A DNA stretch of 64,000 bases, from NCBI RefSeq assembly GCF_013315695.1, contig NZ_CP054353.1; one strand, written 5' to 3'. Shown here piece after piece: positions 15,554 through 39,980 of the stretch; position 1 is the first letter of the stretch; every line of letters begins with the position of its first letter. The position numbers and the translations under genes were made by a program. The notes below the pieces were generated by a model. That model saw only the letters and a program-made list of their open reading frames with translations, was not told the DNA's origin and ran no database searches. The stretch comes from Escherichia coli (GTDB lineage: Bacteria; Pseudomonadota; Gammaproteobacteria; Enterobacterales; Enterobacteriaceae).

Positions 15554-15875
15554 CCTTCATTAGTCCAGAGCTGGCGGGAAAAATAACGCCGGCTCTGCCT
15601 TCCGCCCTCCACTGGTACACGCTCTCTTTTTAATTGGTCTAATAAATCGACTATCATCAGATATCTTAGATTAGCGGCAATTATCCCAAAAACTGACTTC
15701 TAAAAAACTTTCCTTTCATTTTATTCATATAACTCATTGATAAAAATATAAATAACGCCTTGTTGTTCTGTTTCGTACTTTTATCTTTCTCTGCAAGCGT
15801 GATGCATCTCTCTGTTTTTGGCCTAGTGAATTATGTAAATTGGTCTACACACAAGCCACCAGGAGTAAGAGCATA

Positions 15876-17348
15876 ATGTCAGGGAACGAAAGTATCAATG
15901 CCGCCCACTATGATCAGGTAACCACCTGGCCTCGGGACGGGTTACAGGCAGATATTGTCCATATTGGTTTTGGCGCTTTTCATCGCGGACACCAGGCGGT
16001 CTACACGGATCTCACTAATCAACTTTCGGACACCCGCTGGGGGATCTTTGAGATCAACCTGTTTGGTGATGCTCAACTGATCGAAAACTTAAATGCACAA
16101 AATGGGCTGTTTTCGGTTGTGGAAACATCTGCATCGCAATCTACCTCACGCCTTGTGCGTTCGGTGGCTGGCGGTATTCATACCCCCAGAGATGGCATTG
16201 CCGCAGCAATCCATAAACTGGCTGAACCTCAGGTAAAAATCGTTTCATTAACCATCACCGAGAAAGGTTATTGCCTCGATCCGCAAACACGTTCACTTGA
16301 TCTCACCAATGGATTAATCCAACACGATCTACAAAACCCGGATGCGCCTCTGTCAGCTATTGGCGTGATCGTCTGTGCTTTGCAACAACGTAAAGCGATA
16401 GGACTCGCCGCTTTTAGTGTGCTCTCCTGTGACAACTTGCCAGACAATGGGCATCTGACGCGCAATGCCGTTCTCGGTTTTGCCCGACAACTGGACCAGC
16501 CCCTGGCTCAGTGGATCGAAGAAAATGTCTCATTTCCAGGCACGATGGTAGATCGCATTGTTCCGGCAATGACTGAATCGCAATTCGCCTTACTGGAAAC
16601 GAAAACCGGTTATGCCGATCCCTGCGGGATCGTCTGCGAATCATTTCGTCAGTGGGTGATCGAAGATAATTTTGTGCGCGGACGACCGAAATGGGATAAA
16701 GCCGGCGCGATGTTTGTCAGCAATGTTCAGCCTTATGAAGAGATGAAGTTACGCATGTTAAATGGTAGCCATTCATTTCTGGCTTATAACGGCTCGCTGG
16801 CAGGCTATGAGTTTATCTGGCAATGCATGGAAGACGCTAATTTTCGTTCCATTACCCACCAACTGATGATTAATGAACAAGCCCGAACACTTAATCCAGA
16901 CTTAAATATCAACATCCAGGAATACGCCGACCTGTTAATTGAACGCTTTAGCAACCGTAACGTTGCACACCGTACCGGGCAAATAGCCATGGACGGTTCA
17001 CAAAAGCTTCCCCAGCGTGCACTGACGCCCTGGCTGAAATTACATCAGCAAAAGCAAAACAATGCTGTTCTGTCACTGCTCGTTGCTGGTTGGTTGCATT
17101 ATGTCATTGATGCTGTTGAGAAAAGCCAGTCTGTCGCTGATCCAATGAATGACCAATTTCAGGCGCTAATAAAGGAACAACAAGACGCATGGCAACAGGC
17201 GCTCGCATTACTGCACCTTAGCGCCATATTTGGTGATTTAAGCAACCATCAGCCATTTATAAATGAAATAAAAATCGCCTTTGCGAATATAAAAAACAAA
17301 GGCATCAAGGCCACCATCAGCCAATTATTATCGGATGAGCAGAAATGA
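15876..17348 (+). CDS. mannitol-dehydrogenase-family oxidoreductase (UxuB/fructuronate reductase-like)
   Basis: About 490 aa from the ATG preceded by AGGAGT; family-level resemblance only. Confidence 0.75.
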   Translation: MSGNESINAAHYDQVTTWPRDGLQADIVHIGFGAFHRGHQAVYTDLTNQLSDTRWGIFEINLFGDAQLIENLNAQNGLFSVVETSASQSTSRLVRSVAGGIHTPRDGIAAAIHKLAEPQVKIVSLTITEKGYCLDPQTRSLDLTNGLIQHDLQNPDAPLSAIGVIVCALQQRKAIGLAAFSVLSCDNLPDNGHLTRNAVLGFARQLDQPLAQWIEENVSFPGTMVDRIVPAMTESQFALLETKTGYADPCGIVCESFRQWVIEDNFVRGRPKWDKAGAMFVSNVQPYEEMKLRMLNGSHSFLAYNGSLAGYEFIWQCMEDANFRSITHQLMINEQARTLNPDLNINIQEYADLLIERFSNRNVAHRTGQIAMDGSQKLPQRALTPWLKLHQQKQNNAVLSLLVAGWLHYVIDAVEKSQSVADPMNDQFQALIKEQQDAWQQALALLHLSAIFGDLSNHQPFINEIKIAFANIKNKGIKATISQLLSDEQK

Positions 17349-18361
17349 AAACATTAATTTGTCAGCAGCCTGGCGTTATGGAATATGTGGAAAAGGATAT
17401 TCCCACACCAGCAGATAATGAAGTGCTGTTAAAAATCAAAGCTGTGGGTATTTGTGGTACTGATATTCACGCTTTTGCCGGCAGACAGCCTTTTTTTAGC
17501 TACCCACGTGTATTAGGTCATGAAATATGCGCCGAAGCGGTTTCGCGAGGCAGCCAGTGCCAAACAGCACAATCAGGCCAGCGCTATTCCGTCATCCCAT
17601 GCATTCCGTGTGGCGAGTGCGCAGCCTGTCGGGAAGAGAAAACGAACTGCTGCGAACGTGTTTCGCTGTATGGCGTGCATCAGGATGGGGGTTTTAGTGA
17701 GTACCTTGCGGTACGTGAAGACAACCTTGTGCCTCTCCCTGACGAGGTCAGCGACAGTGCCGGAGCATTGGTTGAATGTTTCGCCATTGGTGCACATGCC
17801 GTTCGTCGGGCAGAGATCAAGGCTGAACAAAACGTACTGGTGGTTGGCGCTGGGCCAATCGGTCTGGCTACCGCGGCCATCGCCAGGGCTAAAGGGGCGC
17901 ATGTTGTTGTTGCTGATATTGATTGTCAACGTCGCCAGCACGTTGTGGATCATCTGGCAATTAATGTCTTCGACCCAACACAGGAAGGTTTTATTGCCGC
18001 GCTTAGTGAAGTATTTGGCGGCGAACTGGCTTGCGTAGTCCTGGATGCGACGGGAAATAAAGCTTCAATGAGTCATGATGTAAATCTTATTCGTCATGGC
18101 GGCAAAATTGTTTTCATCGGTTTGTACATTGGTGAACTTGTTATTGACGATCCGACCTTCCATAAAAAAGAGACAACGTTACTCAGCAGCCGCAATGCCA
18201 CACGGGAAGATTTTGCGTTGGTGATTGAACTGATGCGCAGCAATAAAATTCACGAAAATTTAATGAAAAACCAGGCATTCAATTTCTTTAGTGTTGGCGA
18301 AGATTACCAGCGTAACGTTGTAGAAAATAAAAATATGGTCAAGGGTGTGATCACTTTTTAA
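17345..18361 (+). CDS. zinc-dependent medium-chain alcohol/polyol dehydrogenase
   Basis: 338 aa; GHE zinc motif, GAGPIGL NAD-binding motif; 4-bp ATGA overlap with the upstream gene. Confidence 0.8.
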   Translation: MKTLICQQPGVMEYVEKDIPTPADNEVLLKIKAVGICGTDIHAFAGRQPFFSYPRVLGHEICAEAVSRGSQCQTAQSGQRYSVIPCIPCGECAACREEKTNCCERVSLYGVHQDGGFSEYLAVREDNLVPLPDEVSDSAGALVECFAIGAHAVRRAEIKAEQNVLVVGAGPIGLATAAIARAKGAHVVVADIDCQRRQHVVDHLAINVFDPTQEGFIAALSEVFGGELACVVLDATGNKASMSHDVNLIRHGGKIVFIGLYIGELVIDDPTFHKKETTLLSSRNATREDFALVIELMRSNKIHENLMKNQAFNFFSVGEDYQRNVVENKNMVKGVITF

Positions 18362-18371
18362 GGGAACAAAT

Positions 18372-19382
18372 ATGACAACTGTTTATGTCAGTGAAGAAAA
18401 TTTAAAATCACTGGTGCACCACAAATTACATACCGCCGGGCTGGATACCGACACCACACAACAGGTGACAGATGTTTTAGTACATGCCGATATTACAGGT
18501 GTGCATTCACATGGTGTTATGCGTGTCGAACATTATTGCACCCGCCTTGCTGCCGGAGGGTTAAATAAAGCCCCGCAGTTTAGCATTGAGCAAATTTCAC
18601 CGTCAGTGGCCATTCTCGACTCTGACGACGGAATGGGGCATTCCGCATTAATTAGCGCCACTGAGCACGCTATTAAACTGGCCCAGCAAGAGGGCCTCGG
18701 TTTTGTTAGCGTTAAAAACACGTCTCACTGTGGTGCGTTATCTTATTTTGCAGAGATGATCACCAACAAAGGGTTGGTTGCTATCGTAATGACGCAAACC
18801 GATACCTGTGTGGCTCCCCATGGCGGCGCCGAGCGCTTTTTGGGAACTAACCCCATCGCCTTTGGTTTCCCGGTGGAAAACAGCCATCCGATGATTGTTG
18901 ATATGGCGACCAGTGCCACGGCTTTCGGCAAAATACTTCATGCAAAGGAAACCGGAAAACATATTGGTGAAGGGCTGGCGATAGATAAAAACGGTTATGG
19001 CACCACTGATCCGTATAAGATTGAAAACCTGCTACCTTTCGGCCAACACAAAGGTTCAGGCATTGCACTGGCTATTGATGCACTGACTGGCGTGCTGATG
19101 AATGCGAATTTTGGCAACCATATTGTTCGCATGTATGGTGATTATGACAAGATGCGTAAGCTGGCAAGTTTGGTTATTGCCATCGATCCGAAAAAGCTCG
19201 GCAATCCTGTTTTTGCAAAAACCATGGCGCAAATGGTCACGGAGTTGCATGCCGTTAAACCGGCTCCCGGTATCGAAAAAGTGTTAGCGCCGAACGATCC
19301 GCAAATGCACTACAAAGAAAAATGCCAACAGGAAGGTATTCCGGTTCCGGCAGGAATATTCCATTATCTGGCAGAGAATTAA
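18372..19382 (+). CDS. Ldh_2-family dehydrogenase (malate/L-lactate or diketogulonate reductase-like)
   Basis: 336 aa; family-level resemblance (YiaK/AllD-like). Confidence 0.75.
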   Translation: MTTVYVSEENLKSLVHHKLHTAGLDTDTTQQVTDVLVHADITGVHSHGVMRVEHYCTRLAAGGLNKAPQFSIEQISPSVAILDSDDGMGHSALISATEHAIKLAQQEGLGFVSVKNTSHCGALSYFAEMITNKGLVAIVMTQTDTCVAPHGGAERFLGTNPIAFGFPVENSHPMIVDMATSATAFGKILHAKETGKHIGEGLAIDKNGYGTTDPYKIENLLPFGQHKGSGIALAIDALTGVLMNANFGNHIVRMYGDYDKMRKLASLVIAIDPKKLGNPVFAKTMAQMVTELHAVKPAPGIEKVLAPNDPQMHYKEKCQQEGIPVPAGIFHYLAEN

Positions 19383-19454
19383 TCACTACTTTTTATTATA
19401 ACGATAGAAAAGCGCTGTATTTATCGTTTCTGTTATATTAACCAGGAGCAGGAT

Positions 19455-20264
19455 ATGAAAGCACTTCGTCCTCTGACGGCATCGCTTATGCTGTTAACCA
19501 GTTGTTTATTAATATCTAATACCACACTGGCAAAAATAACATTAAAACTGAGTCATAATCAGGATAAAAGCCATGCTGTCCATAAAGCATTAAGCTATTT
19601 AGCGGATAAAACCAAAGAGTATTCTAATGGTGAATTAGTTATTCGCATTTACCCAAATGCAACATTAGGTAATGAGCGTGAATCACTGGAATTAATGAAC
19701 TCCGGTGCATTACAGATGGTTAAGGTTAATGCCGCATCACTAGAATCATTTGCTCCAGATTACAGCCTTTTCAGTCTGCCGTTCTTATTCCGCGACCGTG
19801 ATCACTATTATCGTGTTCTGCAAAGTGATTTAGGTAAAAAAATACTTAATTCATCAGAAAGCAAAGGTTTTGTTGGTATTACGTACTATGACGGCGGTGC
19901 GAGAAGTTTTTATTCCAATAAACCGATTACAAAACCTGAAGATTTAGCGGGAATGAAAATCAGGGTTCAACAAAGCCCCAGCGCCATTGCAATGATGAAA
20001 GCACTCGGTGGTGTCGCTACCCCGATGGCGCAAGGCGAACTCTACACCGCACTTCAGCAAGGTGTGGTTGATGGCGGAGAGAACAATACCGTTGTCTATT
20101 CCGATATGCGTCACGCCGAAGTCGCAAAAGTCTATTCACGTGATGAACACACCATGGTACCTGATGTGTTAATTATCAGCACCGACGTGTTGAATAAACT
20201 TGGTGATAAAGAGCGCACGGCATTATTAAAAGCAGCCGGTGATGCTGCCAACTTACTGATTTAG
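19455..20264 (+). pseudogene. TRAP transporter solute-binding protein (DctP family), 3'-truncated by IS1
   Basis: Signal peptide plus DctP-like sequence for 261 codons; last 8 codons (GDAANLLI*) are encoded by the IS1 terminal repeat. Confidence 0.75.
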
Positions 20265-20292
20265 TGTATGATGGTGTTTTTGAGGTGCTCCA

Positions 20293-20568
20293 GTGGCTTC
20301 TGTTTCTATCAGCTGTCCCTCCTGTTCAGCTACTGACGGGGTGGTGCGTAACGGCAAAAGCACCGCCGGACATCAGCGCTATCTCTGCTCTCACTGCCGT
20401 AAAACATGGCAACTGCAGTTCACTTACACCGCTTCTCAACCCGGTACGCACCAGAAAATCATTGATATGGCCATGAATGGCGTTGGATGCCGGGCAACAG
20501 CCCGCATTATGGGCGTTGGCCTCAACACGATTTTACGTCACTTAAAAAACTCAGGCCGCAGTCGGTAA
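20293..20568 (+). CDS. insA: IS1 InsA
   Basis: 91 aa; zinc-finger/HTH protein typical of IS1. Confidence 0.9.
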
Positions 20569-20990
20569 CCTCGCGCATACAGCCGGGCAGTGACGTCATC
20601 GTCTGCGCGGAAATGGACGAACAGTGGGGCTATGTCGGGGCTAAATCGCGCCAGCGCTGGCTGTTTTACGCGTATGACAGGCTCCGGAAGACGGTTGTTG
20701 CGCACGTATTCGGTGAACGCACTATGGCGACGCTGGGGCGTCTTATGAGCCTGCTGTCACCCTTTGACGTGGTGATATGGATGACGGATGGCTGGCCGCT
20801 GTATGAATCCCGCCTGAAGGGAAAGCTGCACGTAATCAGCAAGCGATATACGCAGCGAATTGAGCGGCATAACCTGAATCTGAGGCAGCACCTGGCACGG
20901 CTGGGACGGAAGTCGCTGTCGTTCTCAAAATCGGTGGAGCTGCATGACAAAGTCATCGGGCATTATCTGAACATAAAACACTATCAATAA
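20487..20990 (+). CDS. insB: IS1 InsB frame (transposase made by an InsAB' frameshift)
   Basis: 167-aa ORF overlapping insA in the -1 frame. Confidence 0.9.
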
Positions 20991-21004
20991 GTTGGAGTCA
21001 TTAC

Positions 21005-21046
21005 CGATTATGTCTACAGCAAAGAGTTGTATATCAAGGCACATTG
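21005..21046 (+). pseudogene. ygiS: orphaned 3' end of ygiS (DYVYSKELYIKAH*), displaced by the IS1-bounded inversion
   Basis: First 9 bp gattatgtc are the reverse complement of gacataatc at 26938..26946, which abuts the truncated ygiS; reading on yields ten codons and a stop, restoring the expected 535-aa length. Confidence 0.6.
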
Positions 21047-21184
21047 ATGTCTTTATCGCCGTCGGAGCACGTCCGGCGGCGCTATTCACGCTGATCTCCT
21101 GTGACTCGACGCGGCAGATAATGTAGTATCTCCGGCAATATTGCCCCTTTGAAGGCTGGCGAATAAGTTGAGGAATCAGAATTA

Positions 21185-23443
21185 ATGAGCGATATGGCAG
21201 AGCGCCTTGCGCTACATGAATTTACGGAAAACGCCTACTTAAACTACTCCATGTACGTGATCATGGACCGTGCGTTGCCGTTTATTGGTGATGGTCTGAA
21301 ACCCGTTCAGCGGCGCATTGTGTATGCGATGTCTGAACTGGGTCTGAATGCCAGTGCCAAATTTAAAAAATCGGCCCGTACCGTCGGTGACGTACTGGGT
21401 AAATACCATCCGCACGGCGATAGTGCCTGTTATGAAGCGATGGTCCTGATGGCGCAGCCGTTCTCTTACCGTTATCCGCTGGTTGATGGTCAGGGGAACT
21501 GGGGCGCGCCGGACGATCCGAAATCGTTCGCGGCAATGCGTTACACCGAATCCCGGTTATCGAAATATTCTGAGTTGCTATTAAGCGAGCTTGGACAGGG
21601 GACGGCTGACTGGGTGCCAAACTTCGACGGCACCTTACAGGAGCCGAAAATGCTGCCAGCCCGCCTGCCGAACATTTTGCTTAACGGCACCACCGGTATT
21701 GCCGTCGGCATGGCGACCGATATTCCACCGCATAACCTGCGTGAAGTGGCTCAGGCGGCAATCGCATTAATCGACCAGCCGAAAACCACGCTCGATCAGC
21801 TGCTGGATATCGTGCAGGGGCCGGATTATCCGACTGAAGCGGAAATTATCACTTCGCGCGCCGAGATTCGTAAAATCTACGAGAACGGACGTGGTTCAGT
21901 GCGTATGCGCGCGGTTTGGAAGAAAGAAGATGGCGCGGTGGTTATTAGCGCATTGCCGCATCAGGTTTCAGGTGCGCGCGTACTGGAGCAAATTGCTGCG
22001 CAAATGCGCAACAAAAAGCTGCCGATGGTTGACGATCTGCGCGATGAATCTGACCACGAGAACCCGACCCGTCTGGTGATTGTGCCGCGTTCCAACCGCG
22101 TGGATATGGATCAGGTGATGAACCACCTCTTTGCTACCACCGATCTGGAAAAGAGCTATCGCATTAACCTCAATATGATCGGTCTGGATGGTCGTCCGGC
22201 GGTGAAAAACCTGCTGGAAATCCTCTCCGAATGGCTGGTGTTCCGCCGCGATACCGTGCGCCGCCGACTGAATTATCGTCTGGAGAAAGTCCTCAAGCGC
22301 CTGCATATCCTCGAAGGTTTGCTGGTGGCGTTTCTCAATATCGACGAAGTGATTGAGATCATTCGTAATGAAGATGAACCGAAACCGGCGCTGATGTCGC
22401 GGTTTGGCCTTACTGAAACCCAGGCGGAAGCGATCCTCGAACTGAAACTGCGTCATCTTGCCAAACTGGAAGAGATGAAGATTCGCGGTGAGCAGAGTGA
22501 GCTGGAAAAAGAGCGCGACCAGTTGCAGGGCATTTTGGCTTCCGAGCGTAAAATGAATAACCTGCTGAAGAAAGAACTGCAGGCAGACGCGCAAGCCTAC
22601 GGTGACGAACGTCGTTCGCCGTTGCAGGAACGCGAAGAAGCGAAAGCGATGAGCGAGCACGACATGCTGCCGTCTGAACCTGTCACCATTGTGCTGTCGC
22701 AGATGGGCTGGGTACGCAGCGCTAAAGGCCATGATATCGACGCGCCGGGCCTGAATTATAAAGCGGGCGATAGCTTCAAAGCGGCGGTGAAAGGTAAGAG
22801 CAACCAACCGGTAGTGTTTGTTGATTCCACCGGTCGTAGCTATGCCATCGACCCGATTACGCTGCCGTCGGCGCGTGGTCAGGGCGAACCGCTCACCGGC
22901 AAATTAACGTTGCCGCCTGGAGCGACCGTTGACCATATGCTGATGGAAAGCGACGATCAGAAACTGCTGATGGCTTCCGATGCGGGTTACGGTTTCGTCT
23001 GCACCTTTAACGATTTGGTGGCGCGTAACCGTGCAGGTAAGGCTTTGATCACCTTACCGGAAAATGCCCATGTTATGCCGCCGGTGGTGATTGAAGATGC
23101 TTCCGATATGCTGCTGGCAATCACTCAGGCAGGCCGTATGTTGATGTTCCCGGTAAGCGATCTGCCGCAGCTGTCGAAGGGCAAAGGCAACAAGATTATC
23201 AACATTCCATCGGCAGAAGCCGCGCGTGGAGAAGATGGTCTGGCGCAACTGTACGTTCTGCCGCCGCAAAGCACGCTGACCATTCATGTTGGGAAACGCA
23301 AAATTAAACTGCGTCCGGAAGAGCTACAGAAAGTCACTGGCGAACGTGGACGCCGCGGTACGTTGATGCGCGGTTTGCAGCGTATCGATCGTGTTGAGAT
23401 CGACTCTCCTCGCCGTGCCAGCAGCGGTGATAGCGAAGAGTAA
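21185..23443 (+). CDS. parC: DNA topoisomerase IV subunit A
   Basis: 752 aa; GyrA/ParC family. Confidence 0.95.
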
Positions 23444-23676
23444 TATGCCGGGGAGGGCGCTGTTTCCTCCCGCTTGCAAGGAACGCCGGATGAAACGTTA
23501 AGTCGTCATCCGGCAGCGTATTCTACCCCCGGAAACGATAAAAATTCCCTTGAAACCGTTGTTTATTCATGCGTTGCGATTAACAATACGCTTTTCCAGA
23601 GAGCGGCTTTTAACAATGCCCTAACCTGATTTCAGGTGACGTACAATGCCAGTCTCTCAGACCTTCAGAGGGTGTT

Positions 23677-24414
23677 ATGCTATATATCTTTCGTCTTATT
23701 ATTACCGTGATTTACAGCATCTTAGTCTGTGTATTCGGCTCCATTTACTGCCTTTTCAGCCCGCGTAACCCGAAACATGTGGCCACCTTTGGGCATATGT
23801 TTGGTCGTCTTGCACCGCTGTTCGGCCTGAAAGTTGAGTGCCGCAAACCTGCGGATGCTGAAAGCTACGGCAATGCTATCTATATCGCTAACCACCAGAA
23901 CAACTATGACATGGTCACAGCATCGAACATTGTGCAACCGCCGACGGTGACGGTAGGTAAAAAGAGCTTGCTGTGGATCCCCTTCTTCGGGCAGTTGTAC
24001 TGGTTAACCGGCAACTTATTGATCGACAGAAACAATCGCACTAAAGCTCACGGCACTATTGCGGAAGTCGTGAATCACTTCAAAAAACGCCGTATTTCCA
24101 TCTGGATGTTCCCGGAAGGAACCCGCAGCCGTGGTCGCGGCCTGCTGCCGTTCAAGACCGGGGCATTTCACGCGGCAATTGCGGCGGGCGTCCCGATTAT
24201 TCCCGTGTGCGTCTCTACAACTTCGAATAAGATTAATCTTAATCGACTGCACAACGGTCTGGTGATTGTCGAAATGCTGCCGCCAATTGACGTCAGTCAG
24301 TATGGCAAAGATCAGGTTCGTGAGCTGGCTGCCCATTGTCGTTCGATAATGGAACAAAAAATCGCCGAGCTCGATAAAGAAGTCGCAGAGCGCGAAGCCG
24401 CCGGAAAAGTTTAA
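23677..24414 (+). CDS. plsC: 1-acyl-sn-glycerol-3-phosphate acyltransferase
   Basis: 245 aa; HX4D acyltransferase motif (NHQNNYD). Confidence 0.9.
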   Translation: MLYIFRLIITVIYSILVCVFGSIYCLFSPRNPKHVATFGHMFGRLAPLFGLKVECRKPADAESYGNAIYIANHQNNYDMVTASNIVQPPTVTVGKKSLLWIPFFGQLYWLTGNLLIDRNNRTKAHGTIAEVVNHFKKRRISIWMFPEGTRSRGRGLLPFKTGAFHAAIAAGVPIIPVCVSTTSNKINLNRLHNGLVIVEMLPPIDVSQYGKDQVRELAAHCRSIMEQKIAELDKEVAEREAAGKV

Positions 24415-24488
24415 GTCGGCAATCTGTATTTTTGCGGGGAACACTTTCCTGCACGGTATTACTTTAGCCAGTTTTACATGGAGCAAAT

Positions 24489-25901
24489 ATGTCACTCAGT
24501 CGGCGTCAGTTCATTCAGGCATCGGGGATTGCACTTTGTGCAGGCGCTGTTCCCCTGAAGGCCAGCGCAGCCGGGCAACAGCAACCGCTACCCGTTCCGC
24601 CGCTGCTTGAATCTCGCCGTGGGCAACCGCTGTTTATGACTGTACAACGTGCGCACTGGTCATTTACGCCAGGGACACGCGCGTCGGTTTGGGGAATCAA
24701 TGGTCGTTACCTGGGGCCGACTATCCGCGTCTGGAAGGGCGACGATGTTAAGCTTATTTACAGCAACCGCCTGACAGAAAATGTCTCAATGACGGTGGCC
24801 GGGCTACAGGTACCAGGCCCGCTGATGGGCGGTCCGGCACGGATGATGTCGCCAAACGCTGACTGGGCACCCGTACTGCCCATTCGCCAGAACGCAGCTA
24901 CTCTGTGGTATCACGCCAATACTCCCAACCGCACGGCTCAGCAGGTCTATAACGGCCTTGCCGGAATGTGGCTGGTGGAAGATGAAGTCAGCAAGTCGCT
25001 GCCTATCCCCAACCATTATGGTGTGGATGATTTTCCGGTCATTATCCAGGATAAACGGCTGGATAACTTTGGTACGCCAGAATACAACGAACCGGGAAGC
25101 GGCGGCTTTGTTGGTGATACGCTGCTGGTTAACGGTGTGCAAAGCCCGTACGTTGAAGTCTCGCGTGGCTGGGTGCGCTTGCGACTGCTGAACGCGTCGA
25201 ACTCTCGTCGCTATCAACTACAGATGAGCGATGGTCGCCCGTTACATGTGATTTCTGGCGATCAGGGATTCCTGCCTGCTCCTGTATCGGTGAAGCAACT
25301 TTCGCTGGCACCGGGCGAGCGCCGCGAGATTCTGGTGGATATGAGCAACGGTGATGAAGTGTCGATCACCTGTGGTGAAGCGGCGAGCATTGTTGATCGT
25401 ATTCGCGGCTTCTTTGAGCCATCCAGTATTCTGGTGTCTACGCTGGTGCTAACGCTGCGCCCAACCGGCCTTCTGCCGCTGGTCACAGACAGTCTTCCGA
25501 TGCGCTTGCTGCCAACTGAAATCATGGCCGGTTCGCCGATTCGTAGTCGCGATATCAGTCTGGGTGATGACCCGGGTATTAATGGACAACTGTGGGACGT
25601 CAACCGTATTGATGTCACCGCGCAGCAAGGAACGTGGGAACGCTGGACGGTACGCGCGGACGAGCCGCAAGCGTTCCATATTGAAGGCGTGATGTTCCAG
25701 ATCCGTAACGTGAATGGCGCGATGCCGTTCCCGGAAGACAGAGGCTGGAAAGATACCGTTTGGGTTGACGGACAAGTGGAGCTGCTGGTTTATTTCGGTC
25801 AGCCTTCCTGGGCGCACTTCCCGTTCTACTTCAACAGTCAGACGCTGGAAATGGCGGACCGTGGCTCGATTGGGCAACTGTTGGTCAATCCGGTACCGTA
25901 A
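24489..25901 (+). CDS. ftsP: cell-division multicopper-oxidase-like protein (SufI)
   Basis: 470 aa; Tat signal peptide (SRRQFI). Confidence 0.9.
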   Translation: MSLSRRQFIQASGIALCAGAVPLKASAAGQQQPLPVPPLLESRRGQPLFMTVQRAHWSFTPGTRASVWGINGRYLGPTIRVWKGDDVKLIYSNRLTENVSMTVAGLQVPGPLMGGPARMMSPNADWAPVLPIRQNAATLWYHANTPNRTAQQVYNGLAGMWLVEDEVSKSLPIPNHYGVDDFPVIIQDKRLDNFGTPEYNEPGSGGFVGDTLLVNGVQSPYVEVSRGWVRLRLLNASNSRRYQLQMSDGRPLHVISGDQGFLPAPVSVKQLSLAPGERREILVDMSNGDEVSITCGEAASIVDRIRGFFEPSSILVSTLVLTLRPTGLLPLVTDSLPMRLLPTEIMAGSPIRSRDISLGDDPGINGQLWDVNRIDVTAQQGTWERWTVRADEPQAFHIEGVMFQIRNVNGAMPFPEDRGWKDTVWVDGQVELLVYFGQPSWAHFPFYFNSQTLEMADRGSIGQLLVNPVP

Positions 25902-25911
25902 TGGACCAATT

Positions 25912-25940
25912 CAATGCCCCACAGAGTGGTGGGGCATTGA
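25912..25940. terminator. hairpin after ftsP, possibly bidirectional with the dctM remnant
   Basis: Perfect stem aatgcccca...tggggcatt. Confidence 0.4.
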
Positions 25941-25971
25941 AAATTACTCAGTATGCAGTCTTCACTGTGTA

Positions 25972-26170
25972 TCAGGTCGAAAATAATCCTGGCAGCATCA
26001 GACTAAGCTGCGGGAAATAACAAATAATTGCCATTACTACAAACAATGCCAGAAACATCGGCAGTAATGGTTTTATTGCCCTGTCGATACTGACCTTACC
26101 AATGCTGCACCCCACAAACAGAATGGTGCCGACAGGTGGTGTGCAAAGGCCAATGGTTAAGTTGAAAACG
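25972..26170 (-). pseudogene. C-terminal remnant of a TRAP transporter large permease (DctM-like), cut by IS1
   Basis: Minus-strand translation from the IS1 junction: VFNLTIGLCTPPVGTILFVGCSIGKVSIDRAIKPLLPMFLALFVVMAIICYFPQLSLMLPGLFST*; no start codon. Confidence 0.6.
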
Positions 26171-26184
26171 GTAATGACTCCAAC

Positions 26185-26688
26185 TTATTGATAGTGTTTT
26201 ATGTTCAGATAATGCCCGATGACTTTGTCATGCAGCTCCACCGATTTTGAGAACGACAGCGACTTCCGTCCCAGCCGTGCCAGGTGCTGCCTCAGATTCA
26301 GGTTATGCCGCTCAATTCGCTGCGTATATCGCTTGCTGATTACGTGCAGCTTTCCCTTCAGGCGGGATTCATACAGCGGCCAGCCATCCGTCATCCATAT
26401 CACCACGTCAAAGGGTGACAGCAGGCTCATAAGACGCCCCAGCGTCGCCATAGTGCGTTCACCGAATACGTGCGCAACAACCGTCTTCCGGAGCCTGTCA
26501 TACGCGTAAAACAGCCAGCGCTGGCGCGATTTAGCCCCGACATAGCCCCACTGTTCGTCCATTTCCGCGCAGACGATGACGTCACTGCCCGGCTGTATGC
26601 GCGAGGTTACCGACTGCGGCCTGAGTTTTTTAAGTGACGTAAAATCGTGTTGAGGCCAACGCCCATAATGCGGGCTGTTGCCCGGCAT
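26185..26688 (-). CDS. insB: IS1 InsB frame
   Basis: Protein identical to the copy-1 InsB. Confidence 0.9.
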
Positions 26689-26882
26689 CCAACGCCATTC
26701 ATGGCCATATCAATGATTTTCTGGTGCGTACCGGGTTGAGAAGCGGTGTAAGTGAACTGCAGTTGCCATGTTTTACGGCAGTGAGAGCAGAGATAGCGCT
26801 GATGTCCGGCGGTGCTTTTGCCGTTACGCACCACCCCGTCAGTAGCTGAACAGGAGGGACAGCTGATAGAAACAGAAGCCAC
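26607..26882 (-). CDS. insA: IS1 InsA
   Basis: Protein identical to the copy-1 InsA. Confidence 0.9.
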
Positions 26883-26910
26883 TGGAGCACCTCAAAAACA
26901 CCATCATACA

Positions 26911-28512
26911 CTAAATCAGTAAGTTGGCAGCATCACCGACATAATCCTGGGGATTATGCAGCGGAAAACCGCCAACGTAGGGTTTAAGCAGTTTGATTAA
27001 CGGCTGATAATAGACAGGAATGAGCGGTGCCTGCTGGTTGATGATCACTTCTGCCTGCTGATACAACGCATTACGCTTTGTTGCATCAGCCGTTTGTGCC
27101 GCCTGGTTTAGTAAGGCGTCATACTGCGCGTTTTTCCAGTGGCCGACATTTTCCTCGCTATCGCTCTTAAGCGTGTTCAGAAAGGTGGAGGCATCATTGT
27201 ACGTCGCATCCCACGACTGCCGAGACAACATGAAATCACCGGCTCGTCGGGCATCAAGATAAGTTTTCCACTCCATTGTGCGCAGCGTCACCTGTGCACC
27301 CAGCCATTTTTTCCATTCGGAAGACAACGCTATCGCGGTCTTTTCATGCAGATCGTACTTGTTGTAGAACAGCTCAAAGCGAAGCGGATGAGAGGCGTCG
27401 TATCCCGCCTGTTTCAACAAGGCTTTTGCCATCGCGACGCGCTCACTCAGCGGCTTTTGCAGTTCATCGAACGTCGTCGCGCTAAAGCCTTTTACCTCTG
27501 GCGGCGTCAGCGTAGTTGCGGGCGTTCTCAACCCCAGTACCTTTTGCGCAATAAGCTGTCGATCAACCGTAAGATATAGCGCCCGACGCACCCGCACATC
27601 GTTAAATGGCGGTTTCTCAAGGTTGAAGTTGTAATATTCGCTGTTCAGACGCGGAATAATTCGTAGCTCGCCAGGCAGTGATTTTTCAATGGCGGGAATT
27701 TGCTGCGCCGGAACCCAGGTGAGATCGACCTCTCCCGCGCGATAGCGGTTATAGCCGGTGACCGAATTATCCAGCGCCAGATACTCAACCTGTTGCAATA
27801 CTGTATGTTGCGCATCGCGGTACTTTGGATTTTTGCGTGCAGTAATCTTTTCGTTAACTACCCACTGATCAAGCACAAAGGCACCGTTGTAAACCATGTT
27901 CTCTGGCTTACTCCAGCTATCGCCATGTTTAGCGATGACATGATGAGGAACCGGGAACAGCGTCGGCCAGGCGAGCATCGTCGTGAACCAAGGAACTGGC
28001 TGCTCAAGCGTAACTTCAAGAGTACGATCATCCATCGCTTTGACACCCAGCGATGTAACATCTGCTTTACCCGCAACAATAGCCGCGGCATTGTTAATGT
28101 GCGCCTGTGCCAGATAGCCAGCAAAAGGGCTTGCCGTTTTCGGGTCAACCGCACGTTGCCAGCCGAGGACAAAATCCTCTGCTGTCAGAGGCTGACCGTC
28201 TGACCACTGCAAACCGCTACGCAGATGGAAAATATAGCGCTTGCCGCCGTCCAGTATCTCCCAGCGTTCAGCCTGAGCGGGCTGCACCTGGCCTTCACCG
28301 TCCATCCATACCAGACCTTCAAACAGATCCAGCACAATCTGCGCGGCAGTATTCTCCTCTACCTTTTGCGGGTCGAGCGTGCCTGGGTCGCTATGATTGT
28401 TGTAACGAAAAACTTGTTGCGGGGCGAGCGGTGTGTTGGCGGGAACGTCAGCAGCGTAGAGAGGAGCCGCACTTACCAGGCTGACCAGCCATAATAAATT
28501 TCGCGTATACAT
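26911..28512 (-). CDS. ygiS: periplasmic oligopeptide-type ABC substrate-binding protein with an IS1-encoded C-terminal tail
   Basis: 533 aa; signal peptide; SBP family 5; last 8 aa GDAANLLI come from the IS1 end (native part 26938..28512). Confidence 0.75.
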   Translation of the reverse strand: MYTRNLLWLVSLVSAAPLYAADVPANTPLAPQQVFRYNNHSDPGTLDPQKVEENTAAQIVLDLFEGLVWMDGEGQVQPAQAERWEILDGGKRYIFHLRSGLQWSDGQPLTAEDFVLGWQRAVDPKTASPFAGYLAQAHINNAAAIVAGKADVTSLGVKAMDDRTLEVTLEQPVPWFTTMLAWPTLFPVPHHVIAKHGDSWSKPENMVYNGAFVLDQWVVNEKITARKNPKYRDAQHTVLQQVEYLALDNSVTGYNRYRAGEVDLTWVPAQQIPAIEKSLPGELRIIPRLNSEYYNFNLEKPPFNDVRVRRALYLTVDRQLIAQKVLGLRTPATTLTPPEVKGFSATTFDELQKPLSERVAMAKALLKQAGYDASHPLRFELFYNKYDLHEKTAIALSSEWKKWLGAQVTLRTMEWKTYLDARRAGDFMLSRQSWDATYNDASTFLNTLKSDSEENVGHWKNAQYDALLNQAAQTADATKRNALYQQAEVIINQQAPLIPVYYQPLIKLLKPYVGGFPLHNPQDYVGDAANLLI

Positions 28513-28620
28513 GGTATTCCTTACCGGAGAAATTATAAGCCCGACAACAATACGCCTGTGGCATTGTTAGCTCAAACTTATCGCGAGTGATTTGGCTCAC
28601 ACTCCGGTAAAGATTCCCCA

Positions 28621-29103
28621 TCACGCTAACGGTACATAAACATCCGTTTCCAGTCGCTGCTCTGTCATCCCTTCGGCAAGATTGGTGTAGTGAAACAGGA
28701 TCGGGGCTTTGCGCATTTTTTCGCCGCTTGCCGGAAGCCAGTGGCGAATGATGCCCCATATCGTGTGTGAAATATCGTCCAGCTCGCCAACATGGCGGGC
28801 CACAGCATAACGTCCACCGGTAAGTTCACCATTACTTACGCCATAACGATTATCGGGGATCGGTTCGCTAACGCTGCCGCAGATATCAAAGCGAAACGCT
28901 TCTGGTGCGGTGGTGGCAGGGTCGTCCCAGGCGACGCCAAAAGTCTGGCTTTGGTTAACAGGAGAAAGCCCCGTCTCTTTACGCCACATGATAAATTTCG
29001 CCACGCTGTAGTTGAGCAACTCAGGGCTACAGCGGTGCGGCAACATCGCCACAGGGATTGAGGGGAAATCGATAATATTTACATCCAGTGTCAGGTTTGT
29101 CAT
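28621..29103 (-). CDS. ygiV: GyrI-like small-molecule-binding transcription factor
   Basis: 160 aa. Confidence 0.7.
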   Translation of the reverse strand: MTNLTLDVNIIDFPSIPVAMLPHRCSPELLNYSVAKFIMWRKETGLSPVNQSQTFGVAWDDPATTAPEAFRFDICGSVSEPIPDNRYGVSNGELTGGRYAVARHVGELDDISHTIWGIIRHWLPASGEKMRKAPILFHYTNLAEGMTEQRLETDVYVPLA

Positions 29104-29155
29104 TTTGCCTCCCTGCGAAATTATTCCCGGGAACGCGTCCCGGGAGCGGTAACAA

Positions 29156-29548
29156 TTACGGATTTACTTTGCGGATCTGTTTGACGTCAATTTCAACAGA
29201 GTTCCAGTCTTTATCGACTTCACCCTGAATCTCAACCGTATCTTTCGGCGTCACCGTCACGCCGTTCCAGCGTTTGTGATCGATATCCACATTGATAGTA
29301 CCGCTGGCATCTTTGAACACGTAGAGATCGTCAGAGATGCGTTCAACGATATTGCCGCGCAGGGTTACCCAGGTGTCGTCACGCAGGGATTTTGCGCTTT
29401 CTACGGTCGTTACGCTGCCGTTCGGCCCCTGGAATCCTCCGGCCTGACTTTGCGTTGCCGATGGGCCAGAAAAACCTCCCTGCTCTGCTGCCATAACCGG
29501 TGCACTGCACAGGGCCATTACTGCGATTACTGCTGCGAATTTTTTCAT
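29156..29548 (-). CDS. ygiW: BOF/YgiW-family periplasmic OB-fold protein
   Basis: 130 aa from MKKFAAVIAV...; signal peptide; GGGAG RBS. Confidence 0.75.
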   Translation of the reverse strand: MKKFAAVIAVMALCSAPVMAAEQGGFSGPSATQSQAGGFQGPNGSVTTVESAKSLRDDTWVTLRGNIVERISDDLYVFKDASGTINVDIDHKRWNGVTVTPKDTVEIQGEVDKDWNSVEIDVKQIRKVNP

Positions 29549-29699
29549 GTTTATTACTCCCTTTAATGTCTGTTTCCGAGCATTTAACAAGATAGTCCTT
29601 AACAACTTCTTAAGGGAAAAAAATAAAATTTAATGCTGTACAGAGCGCGTTACAACACGGTTTACTGGCAGCAAATACGGTTATCGCAGGGATGAAAAA

Positions 29700-30359
29700 A
29701 TGCGAATTTTACTGATAGAAGATGACATGCTGATTGGCGACGGCATCAAAACGGGCCTTAGTAAAATGGGTTTTAGCGTCGACTGGTTTACACAAGGTCG
29801 TCAGGGAAAAGAGGCGCTATATAGCGCACCTTATGATGCGGTGATCCTGGATTTAACCTTACCGGGCATGGATGGTCGCGATATTTTGCGCGAATGGCGA
29901 GAAAAAGGTCAGCGTGAGCCGGTTTTGATCCTGACCGCGCGCGATGCGCTGGCGGAACGTGTAGAAGGGCTGCGTCTGGGAGCTGACGATTATCTGTGTA
30001 AACCTTTTGCGTTGATAGAAGTCGCCGCCAGGCTGGAAGCTCTGATGCGCCGAACCAACGGCCAGGCCAGCAACGAGCTGCGCCACGGCAACGTCATGCT
30101 CGACCCCGGCAAACGTATCGCCACGCTGGCTGGCGAACCCTTAACGCTGAAGCCAAAAGAATTTGCCCTGCTGGAATTACTGATGCGTAACGCTGGTCGG
30201 GTACTGCCGCGCAAACTGATTGAAGAGAAACTGTATACCTGGGACGAAGAGGTCACCAGTAATGCCGTTGAAGTGCATGTGCATCATCTGCGACGCAAAC
30301 TCGGCAGTGATTTTATTCGTACCGTTCATGGTATTGGCTACACATTAGGTGAGAAATGA
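29700..30359 (+). CDS. qseB: OmpR-family response regulator
   Basis: 219 aa; receiver plus winged-helix domains. Confidence 0.9.
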
Positions 30360-31705
30360 AATTTACCCAACGTCTTAGTCTGCGAGTCAGGCTAACGCTA
30401 ATCTTTTTAATTCTGGCCTCGGTGACCTGGCTGCTTTCCAGCTTTGTCGCCTGGAAACAAACAACGGATAACGTCGATGAGTTGTTCGACACCCAACTGA
30501 TGCTGTTTGCCAAACGGTTAAGTACGCTCGATCTCAACGAAATCAACGCGGCGGATCGCATGGCACAGACGCCAAATAAATTAAAACACGGTCATGTTGA
30601 TGACGATGCGCTGACCTTTGCCATCTTTACCCACGACGGCAGAATGGTCCTTAACGATGGCGATAATGGAGAAGATATTCCTTATAGCTATCAACGAGAA
30701 GGTTTTGCTGACGGGCAACTGGTGGGCGATAAAGATCAATGGCGTTTTGTCTGGATGACCTCACCTGATGGCAAATATCGCATTGTTGTTGGTCAGGAAT
30801 GGGAATACCGTGAAGACATGGCGCTGGCGATTGTTGCCGGACAATTGATCCCGTGGCTGGTCGCACTGCCGATTATGTTAATCATCATGATGGTACTACT
30901 GGGTCGTGAACTCGCGCCGCTGAACAAACTGGCGCTGGCACTACGTATGCGTGACCCAGACTCGGAAAAACCACTAAACGCGACGGGCGTACCCAGCGAA
31001 GTGCGCCCACTGGTTGAGTCGTTGAATCAACTGTTCGCCCGCACACATGCGATGATGGTTCGTGAACGACGCTTTACCTCCGACGCAGCTCACGAACTTC
31101 GTAGCCCGTTAACGGCGCTGAAAGTGCAAACCGAAGTTGCTCAGCTCTCTGACGATGATCCGCAGGCGCGGAAAAAAGCGCTGCTCCAATTACATTCCGG
31201 GATCGATCGCGCTACTCGTCTGGTTGATCAACTGCTCACGCTATCGCGGCTGGACTCACTGGATAACCTTCAGGACGTCGCGGAGATCCCGCTTGAAGAT
31301 CTCCTGCAATCGTCGGTGATGGATATTTACCACACGGCGCAGCAGGCGAAAATTGACGTGCGACTGACACTCAATGCCCACGGCATCAAACGTACCGGAC
31401 AACCGCTGTTGCTAAGTTTGTTGGTACGAAACCTTCTGGATAACGCCGTGCGCTACAGTCCACAGGGCTGCGTGGTGGACGTCACGCTGAATGCCGATAA
31501 TTTCATCGTGAGGGATAACGGCCCCGGTGTGACGCCAGAGGCACTGGCGAGAATTGGCGAACGCTTCTATCGCCCACCCGGACAAACCGCTACCGGCAGT
31601 GGACTTGGGCTATCGATTGTCCAGCGAATCGCCAAGCTGCATGACATGAATGTTGAATTTGGGAATGCGGAACAAGGTGGATTTGAGGCGAAGGTAAGCT
31701 GGTAA
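30356..31705 (+). CDS. qseC: sensor histidine kinase
   Basis: 449 aa; H-box (AAHELRSPL); 4-bp overlap with qseB. Confidence 0.9.
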
Positions 31706-31814
31706 GGGTAAGACTTTTGCTAAATTCGCAAAAGACTTTGCACATTTTGCTAATTTCACCGTACCGCTCTGTGACGTACTATAGTCGGCAAACGTCTCAC
31801 CTTGAGGTTAAAAA

Positions 31815-32396
31815 ATGAGCAACATCCTGATTATCAACGGCGCGAAAAAATTCGCCCACTCCAATGGTCAACTGAACGACACCCTGACCGAAGTCGCGGA
31901 TGGCACACTGCGCGACCTCGGGCATGATGTCCGCATCGTTCGCGCCGACAGCGACTACGATGTCAAAGCGGAAGTACAAAACTTTCTCTGGGCTGATGTG
32001 GTGATCTGGCAGATGCCAGGCTGGTGGATGGGCGCGCCGTGGACAGTGAAAAAATACATTGATGATGTATTCACCGAAGGTCACGGGACGCTGTATGCCA
32101 GCGATGGTCGTACCCGCAAAGATCCGTCGAAAAAATACGGCTCCGGCGGCCTGGTACAGGGCAAAAAATATATGCTTTCTCTGACCTGGAACGCACCAAT
32201 GGAAGCCTTCACCGAAAAAGATCAGTTCTTCCACGGCGTTGGTGTTGACGGTGTGTACCTGCCGTTCCATAAAGCAAACCAATTCCTTGGCATGGAACCG
32301 CTGCCGACATTTATCGCTAATGACGTGATAAAAATGCCTGATGTTCCCCGCTATACTGAAGAATATCGCAAGCATCTTGTGGAAATTTTTGGTTAA
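31815..32396 (+). CDS. mdaB: NADPH:quinone oxidoreductase
   Basis: 193 aa flavodoxin-like. Confidence 0.9.
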   Translation: MSNILIINGAKKFAHSNGQLNDTLTEVADGTLRDLGHDVRIVRADSDYDVKAEVQNFLWADVVIWQMPGWWMGAPWTVKKYIDDVFTEGHGTLYASDGRTRKDPSKKYGSGGLVQGKKYMLSLTWNAPMEAFTEKDQFFHGVGVDGVYLPFHKANQFLGMEPLPTFIANDVIKMPDVPRYTEEYRKHLVEIFG

Positions 32397-32426
32397 CTAG
32401 AGCTCTGGCTTTAGAAGGAGTTAACC

Positions 32427-32741: not shown

Positions 32742-32785
32742 CATTTCTAAAAAGAGGCCGGTGCTGCTACCGGTCTCAGCCCAGA

Positions 32786-34617: not shown

Positions 34618-34627
34618 ATAACTCCCG

Positions 34628-37717: not shown

Positions 37718-37738
37718 GATTGAATGATTCTCAATTAC
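37718..37738. promoter_or_regulatory. candidate Fur box in the divergent promoter region of the iron-uptake locus
   Basis: gattgaatgattctcaattac, partial match to the Fur consensus, in a 370-bp AT-rich spacer. Confidence 0.3.
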
Positions 37739-39978: not shown

Positions 39979-39980
39979 TC

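Follow-up and report, generated by a model that had tools for sequence, protein, structure and literature searches.

The window, a 64,000-nucleotide stretch of Escherichia coli DNA, carries parC, plsC and ftsP between two oppositely oriented copies of IS1, the only IS1 copies it contains (Table 1). In this lineage, an island encoding a GntR regulator, three dehydrogenases and a TRAP transporter lies between ygiQ and ftsP. The last gene of this island in the window is a truncated TRAP substrate-binding gene (TRAP-SBP), which sits directly left of copy 1 and meets it at 20237/20238 (junction A); the last eight residues of the resulting fusion, GDAANLLI, and its stop codon are supplied by the IRL of IS1. 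An earlier note on this DNA had named ygiQ and ygiS as the flanking genes, which is right for ygiS, but the left neighbor is the truncated TRAP-SBP gene and the end of ygiQ is ~5 kb further left. On the other side, a fragment of the TRAP large-permease gene meets copy 2 at 26169/26170 (junction B'). Beyond copy 2 lies a ygiS fusion in which the 10 last native residues of YgiS (ancestral C-terminus ...QDYVYSKELYIKAH*) are swapped for IS1-encoded GDAANLLI. In addition to its three complete genes, the block between the IS1 copies includes the terminal 42 bp of ygiS, as well as 198 bp from the 3' end of the large-permease gene.

Table 1. Features of the rearranged locus, with positions in the window
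Feature	Position	Strand	Details
TRAP (DctP-type) substrate-binding gene::IS1	19455..20264	+	Truncated; 269 aa vs 327 aa intact; ORF list, RefSeq annotation in AF3 and MSB1_4I
IS1 copy 1	20238..21005	+	768 bp; IRL at 20238, IRR at 21005
Inverted segment	21006..26169		5,164 bp; BLAST mapping to ST131 and IMT16316, AF10/AF14 in silico rebuild
Inner 9-bp target copy, GATTATGTC	21006..21014		Adjoins copy 1 IRR, inside the segment
Detached ygiS 3' end	21006..21047	+	42 bp: 9-bp target, last 10 codons and stop
parC, topoisomerase IV subunit A	21185..23443	+	752 aa, wild-type S80/E84
plsC, 1-acylglycerol-3-phosphate O-acyltransferase	23677..24414	+	Inverted; ORF list and RefSeq annotation
ftsP (sufI)	24489..25901	+	Inverted; ORF list and RefSeq annotation
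TRAP large-permease 3' fragment	25972..26169	-	65 codons and stop; pseudogene without N-terminus
IS1 copy 2	26170..26937	-	768 bp; IRR at 26170, IRL at 26937
ygiS::IS1 fusion	26911..28512	-	533 aa vs native 535 aa; ORF list, RefSeq annotation and comparison
Outer 9-bp target copy, GACATAATC	26938..26946		Adjoins copy 2 IRL, outside the segment

Both elements have the length of an IS1-family member and the imperfect terminal inverted repeats of ~23 bp that go with it (GGTGATGCTGCCAACTTACTGAT and GGTAATGACTCCAACTTATTGAT, with 18 of 23 positions matching between IRL and IRR); copy 1 begins GGTGATGCTGCC... at its IRL and ends ...GGAGTCATTACC at its IRR. The insA and insB' open reading frames of copy 1 lie at 20293..20568 and 20487..20990 in the ORF list and are oriented toward parC. 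The A6C frameshift motif AAAAAAC is found at 20544 (IS1 position 307), where a -1 slip gives the 232-aa InsAB' product characteristic of the family. The InsB part scored 145.6 bits against NCBIfam NF033558, 'IS1 family transposase' (cut-off 100), and InsA alone scored 91.3 bits, and RefSeq annotates copy 1 as an IS1A family transposase with programmed frameshift. Sequence comparison confirmed that the two copies are identical and in opposite orientation, being exact reverse complements over all 768 bp; the earlier note had recognized both copies but made them 767 bp long, with the end of copy 1 and the start of copy 2 off by one base. A repeat search returned a perfect inverted repeat of 773 nt (20237-21009 and 26166-26938), which slightly exceeds the element because a few flanking bases match by chance. 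We considered the identity of the copies as evidence of a parent-daughter relationship and rejected it, since another IS1 of this lineage, located at an unrelated locus, is likewise 100% identical to both and identity is therefore uninformative.

The 9 bp next to the IRR of copy 1 and the 9 bp next to the IRL of copy 2 are exact reverse complements, a match with a chance of 3.8e-6 at one predefined flank pair. The complementarity had been reported before, but with the first 9-mer displaced by one base. In uninverted genomes, both 9-mers correspond to one and the same 9-bp site (6001..6009 of L002 and 14839..14847 of the AF10/AF14 locus), which lies inside the 3' end of ygiS, 33 bp ahead of the stop codon. 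IS1 duplicates 9 bp of its target, sometimes 8 bp, and the ancestral single-copy 9-mer GACATAATC is now present twice, once beside each IS1. Judged from these sequences, the pair is a genuine IS1 target duplication that was split by inversion, as the earlier note had proposed.

The sister isolates AF10 and AF14 have an intact, collinear locus without IS1. In the orientation of the window, the ancestral order is ygiQ(-), the GntR/dehydrogenase/TRAP island (+), ftsP(-), plsC(-), parC(-) and ygiS(-). Reverse-complemented, the inverted segment gives the ancestral sequence that starts at the TRAP large-permease breakpoint (B), contains ftsP, plsC and parC in that order and finishes with the 9-bp ygiS target. 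We rebuilt the rearranged locus in silico from AF10/AF14 by cutting 1,842 bp out of the TRAP operon and putting IS1 in their place; the adjacent 5,164 bp were flipped, and a further IS1 copy, in inverted orientation, was added along with the 9-bp duplication. The product differed from window positions 12397..61900 (49.5 kb) by 23 substitutions and 0 indels. The structure of the rearrangement, its ancestral state and its exact breakpoints are established, as is its fixation in the clone described below.

The 1,842 bp missing from the window are present in ST131, IMT16316, AF10 and AF14. Their loss took the end of the substrate-binding gene, all of the small-permease gene and the greater part of the large-permease gene, and destroyed the TRAP transporter. 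The gap abuts an IS end to the base, the ancestral sequence is uninterrupted across it, and the flanks at the two TRAP junctions (AAAGCAGCC and GTTTTCAAC) are unrelated, with no target duplication between them, as expected of an IS-adjacent deletion. The lack of a duplication, together with the missing 1,842 bp, therefore calls for at least one further IS1 event at these junctions, an adjacent deletion. The BLAST alignments extended into the IS1 ends by 5 and 8 bases, and microhomology of this kind would suggest illegitimate recombination; we rejected it after base-by-base inspection, which revealed extension through mismatches (GATGA vs GGTGA; CATAATGA vs GGTAATGA). The core of the earlier inversion account holds, but it had omitted the deletion, the TRAP island and the duplication-free TRAP junctions.

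A gene block between two inverted IS1 copies formally resembles a composite transposon, in which IS1-parC-plsC-ftsP-IS1 would have arrived as a unit. The chance of this is negligible: the outer flanks, AAAGCAGCC and GACATAATC, differ and form no direct duplication, and both these flanks and the inner segment are native neighbors in AF10/AF14. No genuine plasmid carries the block either, given that all nine of the nine 'plasmid' matches are non-mobilizable, 0.35-5.4 Mb in size and hold it in its native context. These observations refute a composite transposon, and we rejected mobilization by a plasmid as well.

All four junctions of the structure occur in only 2 of 5,426 complete RefSeq genomes, which, with the collinear order in AF10/AF14, bears out the earlier claim that the segment is inverted and sets its orientation apart from that in nearly all other E. 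coli. The two fusion ORFs were found on 667 and 455 public contigs in an exact-match protein look-up. The gap between these counts could hide an intermediate, and it is equally explained by exact matching of a protein twice as long. We checked the orientation at base level in eight independent assemblies from different laboratories and countries, all of them chromosome-scale contigs of 5.1-5.3 Mb: the window, MSB1_4I (Australia), AF3 (UK), CP164702.1, CAXJQQ010000001.1, CAXKJC010000001.1, CP164765.1 and UGAA01000001.1, the last two of which support the orientation for one side each. The orientation was the same in all eight, and no flipped-back isolate was found among them. Searches with the four junctions found no intermediate in the 5,426 complete genomes, and among the long contigs sampled, the fusion proteins occurred only in the final state or in further-rearranged derivatives.

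Reads shorter than 768 bp cannot, on structural grounds, separate the inverted arrangement from an uninverted isomer, in which IS1 would replace 1.8 kb of the TRAP operon and a second IS1 would sit in ygiS with a direct duplication, since both isomers use the same four junctions. That the window is misassembled in this way is nevertheless very unlikely: the orientation is concordant in the eight independent assemblies, and contigs of 5.1-5.3 Mb imply reads spanning the 6.7-kb structure. The eight concordant assemblies and the hundreds of contigs therefore identify the rearrangement as a fixed marker of a widespread clone and not an assembly artefact. Literature searches for the accessions and for an IS1-parC inversion found no description of this event.

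Two members of the clone have rearranged further at the same IS1 copies. In UGAA01000001.1, a second inversion of ~277 kb starts at copy 1 and has its own split, inverted 9-bp target (ACAAAATCA and TGATTTTGT). In CP164765.1, copy 2 has recombined with another IS1; the flanks are unrelated, ~200 kb away, and their 9-mers are not complementary.

We consider it probable that the locus records a genuine clone-wide chromosomal rearrangement by IS1, combining an adjacent deletion with a one-step duplicative inversion by intramolecular replicative transposition. One event would be the insertion of an IS1 in the TRAP transporter operon. This element would have made the adjacent deletion 'in cis', by intramolecular replicative transposition, with loss of the 1,842 bp and of its own target duplication. 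The same IS1 would also have transposed replicatively 'in trans' into the 9-bp target before the ygiS stop codon, a single step that would copy the element in inverted orientation, flip the 5,164 bp and leave the two target copies mutually inverted. We infer the number and tentative order of these three events from parsimony, not from observation.

Several features fit the inversion step. Two inverted IS copies surround a segment whose orientation is opposite to that in the ancestor, and the target is split between the inside and the outside, at the IRR of copy 1 and the IRL of copy 2. The other ends, the IRL of copy 1 and the IRR of copy 2, retain TRAP-SBP and the TRAP large-permease fragment, respectively, which belong to the same operon in AF10/AF14. 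Each copy thus pairs an old flank of the donor with a flank of the target, in line with what is predicted for a replicative Shapiro-type intermediate. Inverted matched flanking repeats beside opposed IS copies have been regarded as diagnostic of intramolecular replicative transposition in a single step, and elements of the IS1 family have been cited for making replicative deletions (PMC4471558). In 210 tested mutants in which IS1 had moved within the chromosome, the donor copy was kept in every case (PMC12428005). We also considered a single aberrant transposition giving both deletion and inversion, in which the two IS ends would have attacked, with reversed polarity, sites separated by 1,842 bp; this is unsupported and conflicts with the fixed 9-bp stagger at the ygiS target.

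The other mechanism offered in the earlier note, insertion followed by recombination, is still a live candidate beside the one-step route. Here the TRAP IS1 would have made its adjacent deletion, a second IS1, derived from any genomic copy, would have inserted independently and in opposite orientation in the 3' end of ygiS, generating the usual direct duplication of 9 bp, and RecA recombination between the two 768-bp inverted repeats would have flipped the 5.2 kb and split that duplication. A duplicative inversion and this route yield exactly the same final sequence. We regard insertion and recombination as a realistic possibility, though not the favored one. Carrier genomes are rich in IS1 (at least 40 matching places per record vs a median of ~10), all sampled IS1 are identical, so that any copy is a possible source, and the recombined copy 2 of CP164765.1 documents IS1-IS1 recombination in the same lineage. 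However, this route takes one event more (two insertions, a deletion and a recombination, as opposed to an insertion, a deletion and a duplicative inversion), no IS1-ygiS junction was found outside the inverted clone in the 5,426 complete genomes, and intrachromosomal transposition of IS1 has been reported to be replicative (PMC12428005). That none of the eight assemblies is flipped back also speaks against it and indicates that, over the history of the clone, the two copies recombine infrequently. That these perfect inverted repeats act as a low-frequency, RecA-driven flip-flop seems improbable. On balance, we infer a single replicative event for the inversion.

The inversion places parC, plsC and ftsP head-on to the replication fork, a direction deduced from MSB1_4I, where dnaA is on the + strand at position 1 and the locus lies at 0.76 Mb. 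The background GC skew is near zero or negative, but it becomes positive over 17-26 kb, a pattern that fits the inversion and is confounded by coding strand and by the neighboring island. Upstream of parC, 179 bp of native sequence are kept, including the 137-bp ygiS-parC intergenic region, and these are preceded by IS1 copy 1 with its transposase genes pointing at parC. A consensus scan for promoters and terminators over 20800..21300 found nothing and missed even the native parC promoter, which makes it uninformative. It seems improbable that the rearrangement is non-neutral, whether through expression or topology changed by IS1 179 bp upstream and the head-on parC, plsC and ftsP, or through selected loss of the TRAP transporter. 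If it were, selection would help explain fixation without a flipped-back isolate in a clone represented on several hundred public contigs.

In summary, the event belongs to a well-known, ordinary class of IS rearrangement and does not amount to a new biological system. Knowledge of duplicative inversions and adjacent deletions by IS elements goes back decades, and mechanistically nothing new is added. The locus is an unusually clean natural example, since sister isolates still carry the IS-free ancestral state and the product can be reconstructed from it to the base. Either the four junctions or the pair of fusion ORFs (269 aa and 533 aa) provide simple markers for a widespread, IS1-rich E. 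coli clone, in which these IS1 copies have given rise to further inversions of 200-280 kb. Two essential genes, parC and plsC, lying head-on to replication without obvious harm are a minor observation from nature that bears on the debate about gene orientation. The locus also illustrates that short-read assemblies cannot orient segments between inverted IS copies.

IS1 makes duplicative inversions as well as replicative deletions with a boundary precisely at one end of the element. Adjacent deletions and inversions mediated by IS1 were reportedly described by Turlan and Chandler (EMBO J, 1995) and in classical studies by Reif, Saedler and Cornelis. Both kinds of event are consistent with the TRAP junctions and the ygiS target; the earlier work used plasmid or gal/lac laboratory systems, whereas here a natural event is fixed in a clinical clone. 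As in the recombination inversions of IS-rich Escherichia/Shigella, inverted IS copies lie at both breakpoints, and the large rearrangement at the same IS1 copies in CP164765.1 resembles inversions of that type. However, pure recombination of two independent insertions predicts that both duplications are split, and here one is split while the other flank pair is separated by the 1,842-bp deletion. The gene block flanked by IS1 copies recalls Tn9 and Tn1681, the latter of which has inverted IS1 copies; unlike in these transposons, no duplication surrounds the whole unit, and the block is at its native locus with no sign of movement. A further close parallel is the set of 'in trans' inversions by IS26 and Tn4401 in clinical plasmids (He et al., mBio 2015, PMC4471558). 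In both cases, opposed IS copies bracket an inverted segment, each copy has one target-length repeat and the repeats are mutually inverted, a single-IS, single-target ancestor explains the structure, and 'in cis' deletions leave an IS without a flanking duplication. The element here is IS1 (IS1 family, 9-bp target), whereas IS26 belongs to the IS6 family (8 bp). The locus here is chromosomal and carries essential housekeeping genes, and its ancestor, only hypothetical for IS26 and Tn4401, is observed in sister isolates.

The parC-plsC-ftsP segment is bracketed by two IS1 copies that are exact reverse complements of each other over 768 bp, in agreement with the earlier note, which had described two identical elements in opposite orientation; it had put their length at 767 bp, and some of its coordinates were 1 base off. 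These two copies make up the entire IS1 complement of the window. Judged by its sequence, the element carries all the hallmarks of IS1: the IRL and IRR are identical at 18 of 23 positions, and the insA and insB' frames are present with a slippery AAAAAAC at IS1 position 307, where a -1 shift is predicted to yield an InsAB' protein of 232 aa. It matches NCBIfam NF033558 ("IS1 family transposase") and is labeled by RefSeq as an IS1A-family transposase with a programmed frameshift. The 9-mers that follow the two copies, GATTATGTC and GACATAATC, are the reverse complements of each other, as had also been claimed.

Coordinates of the IS1 copies and of the split 9-bp target in the window
Feature	Position	Strand	Length	Remark
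IS1 copy 1	20238 (IRL, GGTGATGCTGCC...) to 21005 (IRR, ...GGAGTCATTACC)	+	768 bp	
IS1 copy 2	26170..26937	-	768 bp	
Inner target copy, GATTATGTC	21006..21014		9 bp	adjoins IRR of copy 1
Outer target copy, GACATAATC	26938..26946		9 bp	adjoins IRL of copy 2

The breakpoints were mapped by aligning the window to ST131 strain 5392 and IMT16316, which carry the same accessory island. In both references, ygiS, parC, plsC, and ftsP all lie on one strand, followed on the other strand by the genes for the TRAP large permease, small permease, and substrate-binding protein and then by those for an Ldh-family oxidoreductase, a zinc alcohol dehydrogenase, a mannitol dehydrogenase, and a GntR regulator, after which comes ygiQ. 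The left neighbor of copy 1 is thus the TRAP substrate-binding gene rather than ygiQ, which the earlier note had named as the flanking gene; ygiQ lies ~5 kb further left. Window positions 21006..26169 run collinear with the reference from the 9-bp ygiS site as far as a breakpoint within the TRAP large-permease gene, and the window from 26938 on corresponds, in reverse complement, to the reference read from the same site back into ygiS; this 9-mer occurs once in the reference and twice in the window. The left part of the window stops at 20237, within the gene for the TRAP substrate-binding protein (site A); from there to the breakpoint in the large-permease gene (site B), 1,842 bp are missing. 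Given that the 9-mers at the two TRAP junctions are unrelated (AAAGCAGCC and, in ancestral orientation, GTTTTCAAC), there is no target duplication there. Microhomology at the TRAP breakpoints was considered and rejected, since the BLAST alignments reached into the two ends of IS1, by 5 and 8 bases, only through mismatches. The IMT16316 alignment also breaks at window ~31705..31711, where the window lacks ~630 bp; the corresponding stretch of IMT16316 and ST131 holds ygiZ, located between qseC and mdaB, and ygiZ is likewise absent from the isolates AF3, MSB1_4I, AF10, and AF14.

The last two of these, the UK blood isolates AF10 (NZ_OZ546911.1) and AF14 (NZ_OZ546925.1), were found through a right-flank search and are nearly identical to the window, and all four junctions are absent from both. 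At this locus both lack IS1 and retain the intact TRAP operon and a YgiS of 535 aa, with ftsP, plsC, and parC collinear with ygiS; the comparison of gene order with relatives that the earlier note had proposed thus bears out the inversion. To rebuild the expected product, we took AF10 as far as site A, appended IS1, then the stretch that runs from site B through the whole 9-bp target, in reverse complement, then a second IS1, also reverse-complemented, and finally AF10 from the first base of the target onward. Compared with window 12397..61900 (49,504 bp), this product showed 23 substitutions and 0 indels, and the AF14-built product gave the same outcome, so that a deletion of 1,842 bp, an inversion of 5,164 bp, a pair of IS1 copies, and a single duplicated 9-mer suffice to account for the whole structure. 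Three of the 23 AF10-window substitutions (48200, 48316, and 48772) fall within the arylsulfate sulfotransferase gene assT (window ~47400..49200), which is intact in the MSB1_4I annotation and a pseudogene with an internal stop in AF10 and AF14.

Among 5,426 complete RefSeq E. coli genomes, the 10-kb region was covered 100% in only two, AF3 (NZ_OZ547117.1, a UK blood culture) and MSB1_4I (NZ_LR898874.1, an Australian rectal swab). The window differs from MSB1_4I at 4 positions in 49.9 kb and from AF3 at 3 in 22.2 kb; being this close to both and identical with neither, it represents a third member of the same clone. At window 26694 (copy 2, IS1 position 244), the window and AF3 have G and MSB1_4I has A, so that the two IS1 copies of MSB1_4I differ by 1 base, through either a post-duplication mutation or a sequencing error. 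Because both isomers share the four junctions for reads shorter than the IS, an assembler could have picked the wrong orientation. We consider such an artefact very improbable, given that 8 independent chromosome-scale assemblies agree on the orientation at the base level (the window, MSB1_4I, AF3, CP164702.1, CAXJQQ010000001.1, and CAXKJC010000001.1, with CP164765.1 and UGAA01000001.1 on one side only) and that the flipped isomer was found in none of the 8. Insertion of the segment as a composite transposon has a negligible probability: the flanks are native and no duplication surrounds the unit, which refutes this reading. Exact matches in public contigs numbered 667 for the 269-aa TRAP-SBP::IS1 fusion and 455 for the 533-aa YgiS::IS1 fusion, and included GenBank ELF15715 and ELF15723, whose accession numbers are eight apart. 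A widespread clone thus carries the rearrangement as a fixed marker, and a literature search found no published description of it. Several of the parC-plsC-ftsP matches among PLSDB plasmid records (H131-H139) are 0.35-5.4 Mb with native chromosomal context, and these appear to be whole or partial chromosomes deposited under the heading of plasmids.

Both IS1 copies combine an old flank with a new one: copy 1 abuts the TRAP substrate-binding gene at its IRL (old) and the target at its IRR (new), and copy 2 abuts the TRAP large-permease fragment at its IRR (old) and the target at its IRL (new). This pattern is exactly the product expected of "in trans" replicative transposition, in which a lone IS1 between sites A and B would have transposed into the ygiS target on the same molecule, doubling the IS1 in inverted orientation, inverting the DNA between, and splitting and inverting the target duplication. 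He et al. took such a flank pattern as diagnostic for IS26 and Tn4401 and read a deletion beginning at the flank of ISKpn14, of the IS1 family, as the result of this same process acting "in cis" (PMC4471558). A 2025 study found the donor copy kept in 210 of 210 tested IS1 transpositions within the E. coli chromosome (PMC12428005). The minimum history would comprise three events, namely, arrival of IS1 in the TRAP operon, deletion of adjacent DNA, and the duplicative inversion; a single IS1-adjacent deletion would fit both the absent duplication and the absent 1,842 bp at A and B. The order of events is not fixed, given that several orders give the same product. The earlier reading, an inversion with an IS1-split target, is thereby supported, and it was incomplete in lacking the 1,842-bp deletion and the TRAP island. 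We favor a one-step replicative inversion, which we regard as probable.

The final sequence would be the same if a separate IS1 had inserted in ygiS on its own and had then recombined, through RecA, with the IS1 of the TRAP operon, a possible but less likely route that needs one extra event. Three observations give it weight. IS1 is abundant in these genomes, AF3 and MSB1_4I each having at least 40 matching places for IS1-containing queries versus a median of ~10 per genome, and the IS1 population of the clone seems to be expanded and homogeneous. The same 100% identity is seen in a third copy, which lies at an unrelated locus (L015, 19459-20226), and this makes the identity of the pair uninformative. 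Recombination between IS1 copies does occur in the clone: in CP164765.1 (GCA_046047015.1; L012, 16715-17491), copy 2 runs into GGTAACGCC and an MtlR-type gene rather than ygiS, and ~200 kb away (L017, 11576-12352) the ygiS-side IS1 is followed by CTCGCTGAT and Band_7/transketolase genes, flanks that are not complementary, suggesting homologous recombination with a third IS1 copy. The replicative route is mildly favored by the lack of a flip-back in the 8 assemblies and, also mildly, by UGAA01000001.1 (GCA_900448625.1; L011, 10784-11560; L015, 17508-18284), an assembly of the same clone in which copy 1 is split across ~277 kb by a second inversion that extends from it into the ETT2 type III secretion cluster. 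There, the TRAP substrate-binding gene and IS1 are followed by ACAAAATCA and ETT2 genes, and the IS1 by parC is followed by TGATTTTGT and the other ETT2 part, ACAAAATCA and TGATTTTGT forming a second split, inverted 9-bp target. From its junction sequences, this is another IS1 inversion, seeded by copy 1.

The deletion and insertions shortened the TRAP substrate-binding protein from 327 to 269 aa, removed the small-permease gene entirely, and left only a 65-codon 3' fragment of the large permease, losses that leave the transporter dead. YgiS lost its last 10 residues and now ends in the IS1-encoded GDAANLLI (26911..26937), which with the stop also ends the TRAP-SBP fusion (20238..20264), given that the two open reading frames continue into an IRL in a common frame. 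ParC has the wild-type residues S80 and E84. The native DNA 5' of parC is reduced to 179 bp, which comprise the severed 3' end of ygiS and the intergenic region between ygiS and parC, with IS1 copy 1 directly upstream and its transposase genes pointing towards parC. The oriC lies just behind dnaA on the E. coli map; because the MSB1_4I record begins at dnaA on the + strand and has the locus at 0.76 Mb, the replication fork crosses this locus along the + strand of the record. In that orientation, ygiS (+) is still codirectional with the fork, and parC, plsC, and ftsP (-), codirectional in uninverted genomes, are now head-on. The GC skew is weakly consistent with inversion and is confounded by the coding strand.

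Separate IS1 copies lie between ftsP and the TRAP large-permease gene in CUVET20-PYO4 (L006, 8968-9665) and inside the large-permease gene in isolate 30345_1#247 (L007, 10067-10764), and an IS1B lies by the Ldh gene in ST131 strain 5392 (L002, 14964-15661), where the locus then runs straight into a truncated exbB. These insertions, in other lineages, are independent, and IS1 seems to have targeted the TRAP island repeatedly.

Collectively, our analysis confirms the core observation of an inverted segment between inverted IS1 copies with a split 9-bp target. Its value is that of a clone marker and of a neat case from nature that can be reconstructed in full. It is a new instance of a long-known type of event, IS1-mediated duplicative inversion with an adjacent deletion, rather than a new system.
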